Shown here: in pieces, positions 9,076 to 19,421 of the stretch
Layout of the letters: every line of letters begins with the position of its first letter
Position numbering within the stretch: position 1 is the stretch's first letter
Origin: Acidobacteriota bacterium
GTDB taxonomy: Bacteria; Acidobacteriota; UBA6911
Length of the DNA stretch: 28,882 nucleotides
Direction of reading: 5' to 3'
Assembly: GCA_037386985.1 (NCBI GenBank)
Contig: JARRLM010000001.1
Coordinates: 2,495 to 31,376 of the forward strand
Notes under the pieces: generated by a model
Database searches by the model: none
Seen by the model: the letters and a program-made list of their open reading frames with translations, nothing else
Told to the model about the DNA's origin: nothing
Program-made: the position numbers and the translations under genes

Positions 9076-10011
9076 TTAGAACTGGACCGCTCCCGCGCCC
9101 TTTAGACCCAGTATCTGTCGCATATCCTCCGGTGTAGCGATATCCCGGCCGAACTCGCGCGCGAGTCGCACGATCTTTTCGACAAGTTGCGCGTTTGTGC
9201 AGAGCTTCCTTCTGCCGATAAAAATATTGTCTTCCAGGCCTACCCGCACATGTCCCCCCATCATGATGGCCACAGCGGCAAGGTTAATTTCGGCGGGATA
9301 GCCAACCCCGATGACCGACCATTTATAATTCTCGCTGCCGAAAAGCCGGTCAGCGGTTTGCTTCATCACAATCAGGTCTTCAATGGTCGCAGCCAGTCCG
9401 CCCAGGACTCCCAAGACGAACTGAATCCACAAGGGAGGCTTCGCAAGGCCGTTTTTCAGCAAGAACCGCAGATTATATAGATGACCCACATCATAAGCTT
9501 CGAATTCGGGACGCACGTCGTTCTCGGCAAAAGTGCTGGAATAGATTTCCATATCGCCGAATGTGTTTCGAAAGATGAAATCTTTGGTGCCCTCGGCGTA
9601 GGCCTGTTCCCAATCATACTTGTAATCCTCGGCTTTGAATCTCCTGGCCACCGGGTGAATGGAAAAATTGATGCTGCCAAGGTTGAAAGAAGCCAACTCG
9701 GGACGATAGCGCGGAATCACGCGCAGCCTGTCCTGAGGGGACATGCCCATGCCTCCCCCTGTTGTTATACCGATAACAACGTCGCTGCCGGCCTTGATTC
9801 CCTTCAGAACCGGCTCGAAGAGATCGGGATCGGAAAGCGGGCGGCCGTTCACCGGATCGCGCGCATGGACGTGAACGGCCGTAGCGCCGGCATGGCCGCA
9901 ATCAATCGCGTCCGCAATGAGGTGTTCCGGCGTAAAAGGCAAGTGAGGCGTTTGGGTTGGAATGGTGATCGCGCCGGTAAGCGCGGATGTGATAATCAAC
10001 TTGTCGGCCAT
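9076..10011 (-). CDS. Beta-keto acid cleavage enzyme (BKACE / DUF849, 3-keto-5-aminohexanoate cleavage family)
   Basis: IITSALTGA, VHVHARDP (Zn His pair), ASFNLGS, KPPLWIQFVLG, GHVRVGLEDN. Confidence 0.93.
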   Translation of the reverse strand: MADKLIITSALTGAITIPTQTPHLPFTPEHLIADAIDCGHAGATAVHVHARDPVNGRPLSDPDLFEPVLKGIKAGSDVVIGITTGGGMGMSPQDRLRVIPRYRPELASFNLGSINFSIHPVARRFKAEDYKYDWEQAYAEGTKDFIFRNTFGDMEIYSSTFAENDVRPEFEAYDVGHLYNLRFLLKNGLAKPPLWIQFVLGVLGGLAATIEDLIVMKQTADRLFGSENYKWSVIGVGYPAEINLAAVAIMMGGHVRVGLEDNIFIGRRKLCTNAQLVEKIVRLAREFGRDIATPEDMRQILGLKGAGAVQF

Positions 10012-14611: not shown

Positions 14612-14638
14612 ATAATGGCCCAGAGTCTTGCCGATCAT
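14612..14638 (-). pseudogene. N-terminal fragment of a Ser/Thr protein kinase (MIGKTLGHY), separated from its RBS by the RIT element
   Basis: Minus strand ATG ATC GGC AAG ACT CTG GGC CAT TAT; joining to 19152-19172 through TCATGG gives GGGAGA-5nt-MSMIGKTLGHY. Confidence 0.55.
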
Positions 14639-14640
14639 GG

Positions 14641-14691
14641 TTATGTTCTCAGTTGAATTATGTTCTTAGTTTTTCTTCTTATGCTTCAGTA
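14641..14691 (+). repeat. Left end: terminal inverted repeat plus two sub-terminal copies
   Basis: TTATGTTCTCAGTTG 14641-14655; TTATGTTCTTAGTT from 14658; TTATGCTTCAGT from 14679. Confidence 0.8.
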
Positions 14692-14839
14692 TTTTAATCT
14701 ACTTTCCTGATTTTAAATCATAGATAAATAGTTTTTTCCTTTTTATTATCCCTGCTTTTAGTTCTTCGCCCCCATCTCCTATGCTTCTACAGCTTTTGTC
14801 AATGGTCCATACCAGGTCTGCAATCAGGGGGAGATTTTT

Positions 14840-15268
14840 ATGCCGAAGCGTAGGAAGTGCCCTTTTTGTCGCCGGCTGTTCATCCCGGATCTGCGGGTCA
14901 AGGAGCGACAAAAAACTTGTGGTCGGAGAGAGTGTCGCGGCGAGCAAAAACGCCAATTGGATGCGCGTTGGCGGTTGCAAAATCCAGACTACTTTCGGAA
15001 TTTATATCCACAACAAAAGCAGGCTTACGGTACCCGGGCCGAATACCGAAAACGCTACCGCAAGGATCATCCCGATTATGTCCAGCGTAACGCCGCTTTC
15101 GTCAAGAAATACCGGAGGCGCCGCAACGAGAAAGCGGCAAAAGATGTAAGTTCCACAAGTTGTGATCTGCGTCTAACTGTTTGGAAACAAACGGGTAAGG
15201 TTAAAATTACCCATGTAAGTCACACAAGTCGCGATATTCTTGTAACTCTTTGCGAAAATGCATCTTAG
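14840..15268 (+). CDS. Hypothetical basic protein with N-terminal CxxC-x16-CxxxxC cluster (putative Zn-binding)
   Basis: RBS GGGGGAGA; CPFC...CGRREC; Arg/Lys-rich middle; two repeat units at the C-terminus. Confidence 0.75.
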   Translation: MPKRRKCPFCRRLFIPDLRVKERQKTCGRRECRGEQKRQLDARWRLQNPDYFRNLYPQQKQAYGTRAEYRKRYRKDHPDYVQRNAAFVKKYRRRRNEKAAKDVSSTSCDLRLTVWKQTGKVKITHVSHTSRDILVTLCENAS

Positions 15269-15298
15269 CGGGAAATTACCCATGTAAGTTCCACAAGT
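15144..15298 (+). repeat. Three direct repeats with an exact 69-bp period, core ATGTAAGT(TC/CA)CACAAGT
   Basis: Cores at 15144-15160, 15213-15229 and 15282-15298; copies 2 and 3 share the extra prefix AAATTACCC. Confidence 0.9.
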
Positions 15299-15338
15299 TC
15301 AGATAGCATTCCCGGCCGCCGCCAAATATTCTCGCTGC

Positions 15339-15686
15339 ATGTTGACGAAACGACCACAACCGCCGCGCCCGGATCGCATTCGATCTATCCGCGGATCTTT
15401 CAGTTGGATCGATCACCGATTTTTCCGCCAGGGATTCGACCAGGGATTAACCCGCCTGGAGAAGCTCCTCTACCTTGTGCTTATTGCCGTTTCCAATCGG
15501 GATGGTGTGAGCTTTTATTCGGACGAGCGACTGACGGAACTTCTCGAGATCCGCCACCCCCACGAACTAAGTGGGGCTCGCAATGAGCTGATTGATCGGG
15601 ATCTGATCGCATTCGAACGGGGAATCTATCAAGTTCTGGATCTGCCTCCTCAACCTCAAACACCCGGTTACCGGGAAAATGGATGA
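15339..15686 (+). CDS. Winged-helix-like DNA-binding protein (replication-initiator N-domain-like), coupled to the first recombinase
   Basis: SFSWIDHRFF, EKLLYLVLIAVSNRDGVSFYSDERLTELL, ARNELIDRDLI; its TGA overlaps the ritA ATG (ATGA 15683-15686). Confidence 0.78.
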   Translation: MLTKRPQPPRPDRIRSIRGSFSWIDHRFFRQGFDQGLTRLEKLLYLVLIAVSNRDGVSFYSDERLTELLEIRHPHELSGARNELIDRDLIAFERGIYQVLDLPPQPQTPGYRENG

Positions 15687-16939
15687 AAGGATCCGTTTTG
15701 AATCTTGCCGCCTGGATTGCCGATTACCAAACGTACCTTGAATCCACCGGTTATGCCGGCGCCACGATCCTATCTCGAATGAAGCACCTGAACTGCCTGC
15801 TCGCCTTTATCAATGCGCAGGACCTGAAAAGCTTGGAAGAGTTTCGCCCGGAACTGGCCATCGACTTTACCGATTACTGGGTGCGCCATCAACCTTATGC
15901 CAAGTCCGGTAAGGCTACCCTGAAAAAATCGAGATTCAAACCGCATCATCACAAAGGAATCCAGTATACCCTCCATTGCTTCTTCCGCTGGGCGCACTCC
16001 ACCGGACGTCTTCAACATAATGTTTTTCCCCTAATGCCTCCTGTGCGTGGCAACTACTTTTTCCAGGAGGTGGCCGGCTATATGCATTTCTGCCGACAGC
16101 ATAAGGGCTTGGCCCGAAACTCCCTGATAGAGATTGAACTCTTCGTGCGCCGCTTTGACGGATTCCTGCATTCCCGGCAGGTGAAACATTGGAATGAGAT
16201 GCGAATGCATCACATTGATCTGTTCATCCGGCAGCAGGCAGACAAGAACATTAAGCGTATTCGTCGCATTCAGAATGTGCTGCGCGGTCTGTTCCGGTAT
16301 CTGTTCAGCCTCAATCTGGTGAATCGTGACTGGGCCCTGGCTTTGCATGCTCCCCGCCAATACCACCTCGCTGATGTCCCCCGAACCATTCCCGCGGACC
16401 AGGTGATCCGATTGCTGCAGAGCATCGACCGCAATCGGCGAGGCGGCAAAAGGGATTTTGCCATGATACTGATGGCGGCCGGCCTTGGTGTGCGCGCCAA
16501 TGAGCTGGCCAATCTTTGCCTTGAAGATCTCGATTGGAAAAAAGGCGCAGTCCGTTTCAAACAGTCCAAGAATGGGAAACTGCTCTGGCTGCCGCTTTCG
16601 GGGCCTCTGATTGGAGCTCTGTCGTCTTACCTGCAGAACGAACGCCCCAACGACAGCGCCTCGAGAAACGTTTTTTTGCGGCTGGATGCTCCCTGGGAAC
16701 CGCTGACCCCGGCCGGAGTCGCCGGCGCCATACGGAAAAGAATGCGCGCGGCCCAGATCGCGGGCAGCGGTCATCAGCTGCGGCATAGTTTTGCCGGTGA
16801 ACTGCTGCGAGTTGGAGTCAATTTTTCAACCCTGCAGGAACTGCTGGGACATAGCCATATTACGTCCACTCAGATCTATACCAAAATCGATCTGAAACAG
16901 CTCCGTGAAGTGGCTGAAAGCGATGGTGAAAACTACTGA
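15683..16939 (+). CDS. ritA: Tyrosine recombinase, RIT first subunit
   Basis: RDFAMILMAAGLGVRANE; HQLRHSFA...LLGHSHITSTQIY (R, H-x-x-R, H, Y intact). Confidence 0.92.
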   Translation: MKGSVLNLAAWIADYQTYLESTGYAGATILSRMKHLNCLLAFINAQDLKSLEEFRPELAIDFTDYWVRHQPYAKSGKATLKKSRFKPHHHKGIQYTLHCFFRWAHSTGRLQHNVFPLMPPVRGNYFFQEVAGYMHFCRQHKGLARNSLIEIELFVRRFDGFLHSRQVKHWNEMRMHHIDLFIRQQADKNIKRIRRIQNVLRGLFRYLFSLNLVNRDWALALHAPRQYHLADVPRTIPADQVIRLLQSIDRNRRGGKRDFAMILMAAGLGVRANELANLCLEDLDWKKGAVRFKQSKNGKLLWLPLSGPLIGALSSYLQNERPNDSASRNVFLRLDAPWEPLTPAGVAGAIRKRMRAAQIAGSGHQLRHSFAGELLRVGVNFSTLQELLGHSHITSTQIYTKIDLKQLREVAESDGENY

Positions 16940-17975
16940 GATGAATAAGCTGCCCGAATTGAACTACGAGAGTTTCCTGGCCGCTGCAATGCGGGATTAC
17001 CTGGACTACCTCGACCACCTCGGGTTCAGCACCATGAACCATGCCTACAATCTCAAGAGTATTGATCGCTTTCTAATCGAAAACGACATCCGCCATACCG
17101 ACCAGCTTAATACCCGGCTAATGGTCGAGTTCGCAGACAAACACAAAGGGCGGATTAAAGCCAATACCCTGCGATTGCTGCGGCATACTTTTTATGGATT
17201 CTGCCGTTACATGATTCGTCTTGGCTGGATGGTGGAAAATCCAGTGGCCGGGTTTCCCGTGCTCAAATCCCAGTCTTATCTCCCGCATGTTTTTTCCCCG
17301 CAGGAGCTGAGGCTCTTCTTCGATTCCTTCAAAGCAAAGATACAACAGGAAGAGAATCCAACAGTGCGTTTCCGCGCTCTGTCCTACTACACCCTCTACC
17401 ACCTTCTGTATGCCTGCGGACTGCGTGTTTCTGAAGCCACTGCGCTCACAACATCCGTGTATTGTTCCCGTCAAGCGACTTTGTACATAGAACGTTCGAA
17501 GTTTCGCAAAGACCGTCTCATACCGATCAGTCGAAAAGTATGCTCCAATCTCGATTATCTTCTGACCGTGCGGCAGGGCCTGTTCGGGATTCCGCGCGAA
17601 GGATTCCTGTTTTTATTGGTGCCTCAATGCCGGCCGTACGCTCGAGATTGGCCCGGTCAATACTTTCGCAGAGTTCTCCAGCGCCTCGGGATTTACCATA
17701 ACAAGGAACATCATTGCGGCGTCTGCCATGGAACACCCCATCTGCACGAGCTTCGCAGAGCCTTCGCCGTCCATCGCCTCCTGAGATGGTATCGGGATAA
17801 GGCGGACGTCAACGCCAAGCTCCCTCTGTTGGCCACTTATATGGGGCACAGTTACTTCGGACACACGAAGACATACCTGACCTTGACCCGACAACTGCTT
17901 TCGGAAGCGGGAAGCCGGTTTGCCCAAAGCTTCGACCGCCTGGACTGGATGACGGATGATTCCAAGCTCGGATAA
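16923..17975 (+). CDS. ritB: Tyrosine recombinase, RIT second subunit (start uncertain: 16905, 16923 or 16941)
   Basis: LLYACGLRVSEA; HELRRAFAVHRLLRWY; LPLLATYMGH...TKTYL, typical of the middle RIT gene. Confidence 0.92.
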   Translation: MVKTTEMNKLPELNYESFLAAAMRDYLDYLDHLGFSTMNHAYNLKSIDRFLIENDIRHTDQLNTRLMVEFADKHKGRIKANTLRLLRHTFYGFCRYMIRLGWMVENPVAGFPVLKSQSYLPHVFSPQELRLFFDSFKAKIQQEENPTVRFRALSYYTLYHLLYACGLRVSEATALTTSVYCSRQATLYIERSKFRKDRLIPISRKVCSNLDYLLTVRQGLFGIPREGFLFLLVPQCRPYARDWPGQYFRRVLQRLGIYHNKEHHCGVCHGTPHLHELRRAFAVHRLLRWYRDKADVNAKLPLLATYMGHSYFGHTKTYLTLTRQLLSEAGSRFAQSFDRLDWMTDDSKLG

Positions 17976-18987
17976 ACTCTCGGTTCATCTCCATTACTTT
18001 TTTACGCGCTATCTGCCGCAACACCGGGAGGTCTCGTCCCATACGTTGTCGAGCTATAGGCAAACGTTCATTCACCTCGTTCGCTACTGGAACCGATCCT
18101 TCCCGGATTGTCCCGACCCTACAATAGATCGATTCCATGTTGGATTTTTGCTGGAGTTCCTTTCCTATCTGGAAAAAGAGCTGGGCAACGCGGCAGCGAC
18201 GCGCAACTCCCGCCTGGCTGCCCTGAAGTCCTTTTTTAAAATGGTCAGTCTGATCGAGCCCCGCTATCAAACGCAATGCCGTCAGATCCTGATGATTCCT
18301 GAGAAAAGAGTGCGGCGCTGGCCCTTTGAATACCTGGAGAAAAACGAAGTCGATTCGATTTTCGCCTGCGTCAATGTGCATACTCACGACGGCTACCGCG
18401 ATCTCTGCATTCTCCGCTCGCTGTACAACACCGGAGCGCGCGCTTCCGAGTTATGCGGCATCAACCTGCCCGACCTTGATCTTAAAAACAAACAGGTGTT
18501 GCTTTATGGCAAGGGAAAAAGGATCCGCACCGTTCCCCTGTGGGATTCCACCGCCGCATTCCTGAATAATTACCTGAAATCCGAACGGCGGGTTCCTCTG
18601 GAACCTTACGGCAACTTCCTATTCATCAATCAGCGCGGCGGCTCCCTGACTCGGTCAGGCCTTTATGCGCTTTGCAAAAAATACCTCGTTAAGGCTCGTG
18701 CCAGAGTGCCCACGCTGGCGCGTAAGCGAGTTCACCCGGTGCATGTCTGGCGCCGCACAACAGCTTCTCATCTGCTGCTTGCCGGCGTCGATCTGACTGT
18801 GATTCAGGAATGGCTGGGGCATGTCTCGATCGACACTACCTGTGGATATAAAGGCATCTCGATCGAAACCAAGCGTGAAGTGTTACAGAAGTTTTATTTG
18901 TTTGAGAAAGCCTGGCAGAAAACCAAAACGGAAGGGATTGATTGGAGTTTGCATCCGAATTTACTGTCGTTCCTGGAATCGCTTTAA
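17956..18987 (+). CDS. ritC: Tyrosine recombinase, RIT third subunit
   Basis: ATRNSRLAALKSFF; LYNTGARASE; HVWRRTTASHLL...WLGHVSIDTTCGY; overlaps ritB by 20 bp. Confidence 0.92.
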   Translation: MIPSSDKLSVHLHYFFTRYLPQHREVSSHTLSSYRQTFIHLVRYWNRSFPDCPDPTIDRFHVGFLLEFLSYLEKELGNAAATRNSRLAALKSFFKMVSLIEPRYQTQCRQILMIPEKRVRRWPFEYLEKNEVDSIFACVNVHTHDGYRDLCILRSLYNTGARASELCGINLPDLDLKNKQVLLYGKGKRIRTVPLWDSTAAFLNNYLKSERRVPLEPYGNFLFINQRGGSLTRSGLYALCKKYLVKARARVPTLARKRVHPVHVWRRTTASHLLLAGVDLTVIQEWLGHVSIDTTCGYKGISIETKREVLQKFYLFEKAWQKTKTEGIDWSLHPNLLSFLESL

Positions 18988-19073
18988 ACCATCTTCCAGG
19001 AGCCGGGATCATTGCGTCATCAGCCCGATAATTATGTTCTGTGTTTTTTTACCCGAATCGCTTACTGCTTATT

Positions 19074-19086: not shown

Positions 19087-19136
19087 ACAAAAACAACCAA
19101 AATCCTGATAACTCATAGCGAATTAGGGAGATACGG

Positions 19137-19151
19137 CAACTCAGAACATAA
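19137..19151 (-). repeat. Right terminal inverted repeat of the RIT element
   Basis: CAACTCAGAACATAA (reverse complement TTATGTTCTGAGTTG); an oppositely oriented TTATGTTCTG lies at 19032-19041. Confidence 0.8.
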
Positions 19152-19421
19152 TCATGGACATAAGCATCTCCCGGCTAATCTGGCTGTCATGCTTTTTGGT
19201 GATTCGTGGCGGCAATTATCAGGGATGAGGGGAATGGGAAAAGGGAAATTGCGGGTAAGCCGCTGCAGCGAAATCAAGTCACTTTTCCGGAATGGATGTC
19301 AGGATCTAGAAACGAAAATAGCCTAACAGCATGGTCAAGTTCCCAACGTCTTGTTGATCGATCTTATTTTGTTTGTCCTTGAAGATCTATCTTTCTCGTG
19401 AAGTCTTCCCAAACCTGATCG

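Follow-up and report, generated by a model that had tools for sequence, protein, structure and literature searches.

We analysed a 28,882-nucleotide stretch of the genome of an Acidobacteriota bacterium (assembly GCA_037386985.1, contig JARRLM010000001.1, positions 2,495 to 31,376 of the forward strand; referred to below as the window), in which two small genes, ORF1 and ORF2, stand in front of three tyrosine-recombinase genes of a RIT element. Together with three phased direct repeats, the two genes make up a leader cassette that lies inside this element, between its left end and the recombinase genes. The cassette has repeatedly been recombined onto four kinds of enzyme: the RIT trio, a pair of tyrosine recombinases, the DEDD transposase of the IS110 family and the IstA/IstB proteins of the IS21 family. 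The original prediction, made from the sequence of the window, was that ORF1 and ORF2 may be a portable helper module shared between unrelated mobile elements.

The mobile unit around ORF1 and ORF2 is a RIT element of 4.52 kb (Table 1), bounded at 14636 and 19156 by 36-nt terminal inverted repeats that are made of TTATGTTCTNAGTT sub-repeats. In two independent metagenomic copies (L041 and L042) the homology with the window begins at 14635/14640, and in L041 its right limit is at 19155. Because the inverted repeats enclose ORF1 and ORF2 and these copies share the ends, both genes belong to the unit. The three recombinase genes are adjacent, lie on the same strand with overlapping ends and all match Pfam Phage_integrase, which is the A-B-C order of adjacent, overlapping genes described for RIT elements (PMC3414803, PMC8138268). 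RitA proteins have two core-binding (SAM-like) domains (PMC8138268); for the RitA of the window Pfam gives two weak matches to N-terminal SAM-like segments (residues 10–40, E = 0.005; residues 132–207, E = 2.7e-4). Known RIT elements are about 3.5 kb long, with ritABC as their sole content (PMC3414803), whereas the window element, otherwise alike in its gene order and terminal inverted repeats, carries ORF1, three repeats and ORF2 in addition before ritA. No description of such a cassette was found in the literature on accessory genes of RIT, IS21 and IS110 elements, a survey that did not cover Ricker et al. 2013. To our knowledge, the mobility of RIT elements has never been studied experimentally.

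Table 1. Features of the RIT element and its leader cassette, in window coordinates
Feature	Position	Strand	Remarks
Left terminal inverted repeat	14636..14671	.	pair I1; two direct TTATGTTCTNAGTT sub-repeats at 14641 and 14658
AT-rich leader 5' of ORF1	14692..14839	+	kept with the cassette even in IS110-type loci
ORF1	14840..15268	+	142 aa
ORF1 N-domain, codons 1–102	14840..15145	+	predicted 4-Cys zinc ribbon and three long basic helices; conserved part of the protein
ORF1 tail, codons 103–142	15146..15268	+	reads through repeats 1 and 2; constrained at the nucleotide level
Direct repeat 1, GTAAGTNNCACAAGNNNNGAT	15146..15166	+	
Direct repeat 2	15215..15235	+	69 nt after repeat 1
Direct repeat 3	15284..15304	+	69 nt after repeat 2; past the ORF1 stop, 35 nt before ORF2
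ORF2	15339..15686	+	115 aa; winged helix; stop overlaps the RitA start (ATGA)
RitA-type tyrosine recombinase	15683..16939	+	418 aa; Phage_integrase, E = 4e-28
RitB-type tyrosine recombinase	16905..17975	+	356 aa from the first GTG; Phage_integrase, E = 7e-14
RitC-type tyrosine recombinase	17956..18987	+	343 aa; Phage_integrase, E = 1e-30
Sub-terminal copy of the end motif, direct orientation	19028..19045	.	repeat families D3/D6, pair I6
Right terminal inverted repeat	19121..19156	.	pair I1

The ORF1 and ORF2 proteins

ORF1 carries the cysteine pattern C7-x2-C10-x16-C27-x4-C32 followed by a very basic stretch, just as the original prediction had described it, and all four cysteines are invariant across 65 diverse relatives. 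The AF2 model of the protein (mean predicted local distance difference test score, pLDDT, 86) consists of a zinc ribbon (residues 1–29), three long helices (residues 30–102) and a low-confidence tail; the pLDDT is 88–98 for residues 1–100 and 53–74 for the tail. Over codons 1–100 the codon-position entropy is 0.45/0.45/1.02, the third position having twice the value of the first two, and this part is under strong purifying selection. Codons 101–142 do not evolve like coding sequence (0.43/0.37/0.52), and the third-position excess is gone. A near-length search collected 129 clusters of relatives, all of them unnamed, and a profile search extended the family to 1,749 representative clusters. ORF1 has no relative in Pfam, NCBIfam, PHROGs or the Protein Data Bank (PDB). 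When its fold was compared with the PDB by Foldseek, the YacG zinc ribbon was the sole match (E = 4.4), and a wide VIA-align search returned generic long helices only, with Z < 5. The ORF1 profile gave only artefactual matches to concatenated RecA in the PDB, and the N-domain gave no match in plasmid records.

ORF2 is a winged helix of the type found in the N-terminal domain of replication initiators. Its predicted fold is a winged helix (pLDDT 80), and residues 33–96 align with positions 13–75 of the 283 positions of the PHROGs profile phrog_19658 (E = 1.2e-6); because this match to the N-terminal part of an initiator is significant, the description of ORF2 given in the original prediction holds. 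A second PHROGs profile, phrog_270, also matches (E = 0.004). The top Foldseek matches are the RepA_N initiators 4pt7, 5kbj and 4pql, which are marginal (E 0.015–0.04) and have CRP and MarR regulators mixed in. Pfam HTH_36 (PF13730) scored 15 bits on ORF2 (E = 0.021), below its gathering cut-off of 25 bits, and the ORF2 profile found nothing among the PDB sequences. ORF2 thus resembles the N-terminal winged helix of phage and plasmid initiators and is not a full-length initiator: it has just 115 aa, and the approximately 200 remaining profile positions are missing. Its relatives in the near-length search, 926 clusters, are all unnamed; only eight longer ones were found, rare fusions to a recombinase or to the C-terminus of an IS110 protein. 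ORF2 is under strong purifying selection, with a codon-position entropy of 0.35/0.21/1.15 in 73 distinct sequences. The original prediction depended on both reading frames being conserved as coding sequence, and this is borne out for ORF2 and for codons 1–100 of ORF1, with codons 101–142 as the exception. Among distant relatives ORF2 is best conserved in its N-terminal arm, PDRIR..GSFSWIDHR (residues 1–27, window 15339–15420), which is largely unstructured in the model (pLDDT 50–60) and may serve for contact with DNA or with a shared partner.

Neither protein has a recombinase domain in Pfam or NCBIfam, in agreement with the first inspection of the sequence. In Pfam, neither gave a ParB_N or HTH_ParB match, nor a sequence match to regulators of the IS1 InsA type, which combine a zinc finger with a helix-turn-helix, bind the element that encodes them and repress its transposase, and the cassette proteins did not match the PADLOC profiles of anti-phage defence. 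Judged by these searches, they belong to no named family. Prediction of a complex between ORF1 (residues 1–102) and ORF2 gave a score of 0.01, which is evidence neither for nor against contact. The stop codon of ORF2 overlaps the start of the next gene in an ATGA at 27 of 57 tyrosine-recombinase loci and at 4 of 11 IstA loci; ORF2 is coupled in an operon-like manner to the gene that follows it.

The triple repeat at the end of ORF1

The 21-nt sequence GTAAGTNNCACAAGNNNNGAT is present in three copies, 69 nt apart, and occurs nowhere else in the window; the first two copies lie within the ORF1 tail and the third beyond the stop codon. All three are kept in 41 of 41 related loci. In seven of these the first spacing is 68 nt, so that repeat 2 is out of frame and untranslated and its TAA ends a 122-aa ORF1. 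Across the 41 loci repeat 3 falls in any of the three frames of ORF1 (0, 1 or 2), mostly past the stop, and is as conserved as the other two. The repeat codons show no synonymous variation, GTA AGT ..C ACA and GAT being invariant in 15 of 15 sequences. Since the frames vary, one copy lies past the stop, synonymous changes are absent and the third-position excess is lost, the repeats are constrained as nucleic acid and not as protein. The contrary reading, that they are a tandem peptide repeat of an ORF1 C-terminal domain with the DNA periodicity as a by-product, could appeal to the peptides VSxTSxD (window) and DIQD or ALQD (other lineages), which occur twice in many family members, and to spacings of 69 and 78 nt, which are divisible by three, but it is contradicted by the frame data, by the spacings of 68 and 79 nt that break the frame and by the low model confidence of the tail, and it can scarcely be right.

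Periodic repeats, in about three copies, are found at the 3' end of ORF1 in 76 of 93 distinct ORF1 loci. Their spacing is 68–69 nt in 70 cases and 78–81 nt in 18, with a few at 60, 64/66 and 92 nt; the values differ by about one helical turn, which suggests that phase along the DNA is important. The motif itself varies between lineages and is uniform within an element: locus L026 has three perfect 16-mers, and the Caballeronia element described below has GCGTTACAAGA three times. An ACAAG core shared by the window, L017 and Caballeronia is read in different frames, ACA AGT in the window and TTA CAA GAT in the other two, which is a further point against a peptide repeat. We did not find the repeat motif at the element ends. 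RNAalifold, applied to both strands of 38 distinct repeat-region sequences, gave no consensus structure, and neither the window element nor any of four related loci has a match in Rfam.

The repeats, a cis element at the level of nucleic acid, travel with ORF1 and not with ORF2 or the enzyme. They are absent, with neither the motif nor a comparable periodicity, from 20 loci in which a near-identical ORF2 follows another cysteine-rich basic protein; they are present at ORF1 loci that have no ORF2 (L018, L026); and the same motif is shared by the window and the IS110-type locus L010 despite their different enzymes. The other cysteine-rich basic proteins in the place of ORF1, none of them accompanied by a triple repeat, are of two types, which we call type B (L036:729-1091, L044:924-1319) and type C (L043:890-1438, L045:630-1139, L099:774-1181). 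At these loci the homology with the window starts exactly at the start of ORF2 (15337/15351). Comparison of the two types with ORF1 by hhalign gave probabilities of 15% and 0.2%, so that homology of these proteins to ORF1 is not demonstrated.

One cassette in front of unrelated enzymes

The genes downstream of ORF2, a tally of which had been proposed as a check, were recorded at the best 80 of at least 563 metagenome loci (66–94% identity to the window ORF2). A RIT trio comes next in 19 of them, and in nine more a RitA-type gene is cut by the end of the contig; a pair of tyrosine recombinases follows in 21, with a few others cut; an IS110-family transposase follows in 13 and IstA/IstB in one. 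ORF2 relatives sit beside mobile-element enzymes of all four kinds. The IS110 enzymes were identified by Pfam (DEDD_Tnp_IS110 and Transposase_20), and the IS21 enzymes were likewise confirmed by Pfam. The IS110-type loci L009 and L010 match the cassette DNA of the window at 72% identity, up to 40 nt before the ORF2 stop. On the 5' side, in blastn comparisons, the homology of the leader starts at 14692 against L005 and at 14721 against L009. In a tree of ORF2 DNA the type of enzyme changes at least seven times, against a possible minimum of three and an average of 24.4 when the labels are shuffled. IS110 enzymes and recombinase pairs occur together in a clade of 100% support, and recombinase pairs, RIT and IS21 elements in one of 98% support.

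In the IS110-type units a sequence of about 165 nt that precedes the transposase gene is repeated after it in direct orientation (L010:7916-8076 and 9374-9548). This repeat, which has no Rfam match, is also found in L009, L036, L043, L049 and L062, and it might be an end or a guide-RNA region of these IS110 relatives.

The textbook IS21 element has two genes, istA for a DDE transposase and istB for an AAA+ helper. The wider ORF1 family (the 1,749 clusters) is found mostly upstream of IstA/IstB, and what IS21 elements have in common with the window element is the position of the ORF1 relatives, mostly between the left end and istA, joined there by ORF2 in several genomes; the window element differs in having no DDE enzyme. 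In the phylum of the window, Acidobacteriota, the ORF1 profile matches 14 of 401 sampled genomes, and apart from the RIT copies of the window genome all loci with readable context are of IS21 type. They take three forms: ORF1-IstA-IstB, ORF1 with a ParB-like gene before IstA-IstB, and ORF1 with an ORF2-like gene before IstA-IstB (L017, with an overlap between the stop of the ORF2-like gene and the start of istA). Because identical IS21 copies (L026/L027 and L023/L024) include ORF1, about 145 nt from the left end, ORF1 lies within these elements. In the phylum of a Syntrophobacteraceae metagenome-assembled genome, 25 of 301 genomes match, with up to 12 copies per genome. There the order ORF1-ORF2-IstA-IstB is common (L117–L119, L123, L128, L140), and the same phylum also has ORF1-ORF2 before RIT genes (L122) and before a recombinase pair (L133), ORF2 before IS110 (L135), and ORF1 before an rve_3 DDE gene (L124/L125). 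At one locus (L113:139-2514) the order is istB, 329 nt, ORF1, istA, which is what an IS21-type element would give at a tandem or circular junction, or what an assembly wrap-around would produce.

A cultured host is also available. Caballeronia sp. SBC1 has a 3,440-bp insertion sequence (IS), whose copies on two replicons are 99.9% identical; all six matched replicon records of strains SBC1 and SBC2 carry it. In this IS an ORF1-like gene with three repeats (69/69 nt) and an ORF2-like gene, more distant relatives of the pair in the window, precede istA and istB; in RefSeq the ORF1-like and ORF2-like genes are each labelled 'hypothetical protein'. With this IS, L083 and the loci named above, the suggestion in the original prediction that such pairs occur upstream of IstA/IstB proved correct, and they stand directly before these genes.

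The window genome itself has a second RIT copy with the cassette on contig C484 (66% and 86% identity). Another of its contigs, C351, has at one end (L003:177-1840) an ORF1-like gene with three repeats spaced by about 69 nt; next come a ParB-like gene and the N-terminal part of an IstA-like transposase. In genome G911 we observed a 4.9-kb unit composed of ORF1, ORF2, a 238-aa N-terminal fragment of IstA and RitABC (L137:803-5714), present in at least three copies of 99.8–99.9% identity (further copies in L157 and L158). This composite is likely the fossil of one capture, and it looks as if a RIT had taken over the front of an IS21 element.

Since ORF1-ORF2 pairs stand before IstA/IstB, and cassettes of about 72% identity before IS110 transposases, recombinase pairs and RIT trios, enzymes of DDE, DEDD and tyrosine chemistry all have the one cassette coupled to them. 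It precedes at least four unrelated kinds of enzyme, and so it serves mobile DNA whatever the enzyme that moves it. The original prediction of one module plugged onto both DDE and tyrosine enzymes thus stands as far as the coupling is concerned and extends to DEDD enzymes, but the pair is not indivisible, for ORF1 is also found alone or with a ParB-like protein, and ORF2 with other cysteine-rich proteins. Most IS21 relatives have ORF1 alone or ORF1 and a ParB-like protein, and in other IS21 lineages a ParB/KorB-like helix-turn-helix protein occupies the position of ORF2. ORF2 is alone in L008 and L093. In the phylum of the Syntrophobacteraceae genome, distant genes of the ORF1 family lie on plasmid-like contigs before TrfA-type initiators (L144:2400-4473, where there is also a ParA-like gene, and L145:4191-6303), and these have no periodic repeats. 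Another small unnamed family (about 120 aa, YxxTPGT motif, no Pfam match) was seen near ORF1-like genes at two loci, both from Acidobacteriota (L012:3920-4282, L020:3737-4099).

Possible roles of the cassette

We tentatively favour, as a reading that is about as likely to fail as to hold, a role of the cassette as a DNA-binding control unit that is independent of the recombinase and would gate its expression. The ORF1 N-domain, with its zinc ribbon and basic helices, would recognise the three lineage-specific repeats, which are roughly a half-integral number of helical turns apart, and would build on them a higher-order phased complex over the 3' end of the ORF1 gene. Such a complex would control whether transcription from a promoter at the left end or at a junction reaches ORF2 and the recombinase genes. 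The second DNA-binding component would be ORF2, a winged helix of initiator type that is usually coupled in translation to the recombinase, and it would tune or license the downstream enzyme. Because control of this kind would act on expression and DNA architecture, not on catalysis, it would be indifferent to the chemistry of the enzyme and could work with any of them, and the portability of the cassette would be explained.

Several observations weigh against a control unit. A scan upstream of ORF1 found a single promoter-like site (14721–14749), which is not above chance. The named relatives of ORF2 are replication initiators only, with no repressors among them. The conserved N-domain of ORF1 would have to read quite different motifs in different lineages by means of specificity residues. 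ORF2 pairs with three unrelated upstream proteins, two of which come without repeats, and for this reason the ORF1 and ORF2 halves may have separate functions. Finally, an RNA-level role for the repeats is conceivable, although RNAalifold found no conserved structure.

The arrangement recalls the early control region of phage Mu, where the repressor and Ner genes and the operators O1–O3 are followed by A and B, a DDE transposase and an AAA+ partner related to IstA/IstB. In Mu, small DNA-binding regulators and a threefold operator stand between the left end and the transposase genes, where the window element has two small proteins of DNA-binding type and three repeats. Homology with the Mu region is not shown, however; ORF1 is co-oriented with the enzyme genes, and the cassette also serves tyrosine and DEDD enzymes.

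The initiator-like character of ORF2 could instead mean, as the main alternative, that the cassette aids replication or maintenance of the excised form, with ORF2 and ORF1 recruiting host replication or partition factors on iteron-like repeats. Circular or junction forms are known for IS110, IS21 and tyrosine-recombinase elements, and the cassette could act on such a circular or tandem-junction intermediate, raising its lifetime or copy number. In favour of this are the match of ORF2 to the N-terminal DNA-binding domain of phage initiators, the RepA_N structures at the top of the fold search, the ParB-like protein that substitutes for ORF2 in some IS21 elements, the ORF1-like genes close to TrfA initiators on plasmid-like contigs, and the direct repeats and AT-rich leader of the cassette. 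However, ORF2 corresponds only to the 63-residue DNA-binding part of a 283-position profile, without a helicase-loading region; the repeats follow ORF1 and not ORF2; their spacing is 69 nt, whereas iterons are usually 20–22 bp apart; and the ORF1 relatives in plasmid contexts lack repeats. We therefore regard a maintenance role as unlikely, and an effect on the lifetime or copy number of the intermediate as doubtful to the same degree. A related and similarly improbable proposal is more general: ORF1, bound to its phased repeats, and the initiator-type ORF2 would make up a nucleoprotein platform on which all elements with the cassette depend once excised, for instance to keep, copy or present the circular intermediate, so that the recombinase is exchangeable and the cassette constant.

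The cassette could also be an adaptor for target choice or for DNA loading, the latter named in the original prediction, its zinc-ribbon and winged-helix proteins passing target or end DNA to the recombinase in the manner of TniQ/TnsD. Selectors of the TniQ/TnsD type do resemble the cassette in combining a zinc ribbon with a winged helix, and ORF2 is translationally coupled to the enzyme. Such an adaptor must touch its enzyme, yet ORF2 stays 75–94% identical while the class of enzyme changes; neither ORF gave a TniQ or TnsD match at E ≤ 1 in Pfam or NCBIfam; and the absence of the repeat motif from the element ends speaks against it as well. A control unit fits the portability better than an adaptor that needs contact with each enzyme, and we consider the adaptor very unlikely.

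Hardly better are the prospects of a cassette that is a selfish or cargo unit, or a favoured landing site, beside which different elements have inserted by chance. It finds support in the IS110-type genes: at 14 of 16 loci a gap of over 30 nt separates them from ORF2, and the direct repeat on either side of them, about 165 nt long, gives them a nested look; the two loci with ORF2 alone can be read in the same way. Against chance insertion, the terminal repeats enclose the cassette, the identical multicopy segments of RIT and IS21 elements include it, and the start/stop overlaps with RitA and IstA indicate an operon. The IS110-type units, moreover, begin and end at the same points although their flanks differ, and no remnant of a RIT or IS21 element follows them.

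As a rule, an accessory gene of an insertion sequence belongs with a single family of transposases. The one well-known accessory gene that crosses unrelated transposases (HUH and serine) is TnpB/IscB of the IS200/IS605 and IS607 groups. The cassette is like it in being common to transposons with unrelated enzymes, but TnpB is a large RNA-guided nuclease, whereas the cassette comprises two small proteins of DNA-binding type and DNA repeats, without relation in sequence or domains. Because one cassette has repeatedly become attached to DDE, DEDD and tyrosine enzymes, it points to a step of transposition that is independent of the strand-exchange chemistry, for example expression control or the handling of an intermediate. 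The finding accounts for hundreds of 'hypothetical' genes beside transposases in environmental genomes, recasts a large group of IS21 elements as having three or four genes and shows how RIT elements gain parts, and Caballeronia sp. SBC1 offers a cultured host in which the function can be tested. If the proposal of a platform needed by every cassette-bearing element were true, it would represent a new functional layer of transposition common to IS21, IS110, RIT and recombinase-pair elements.

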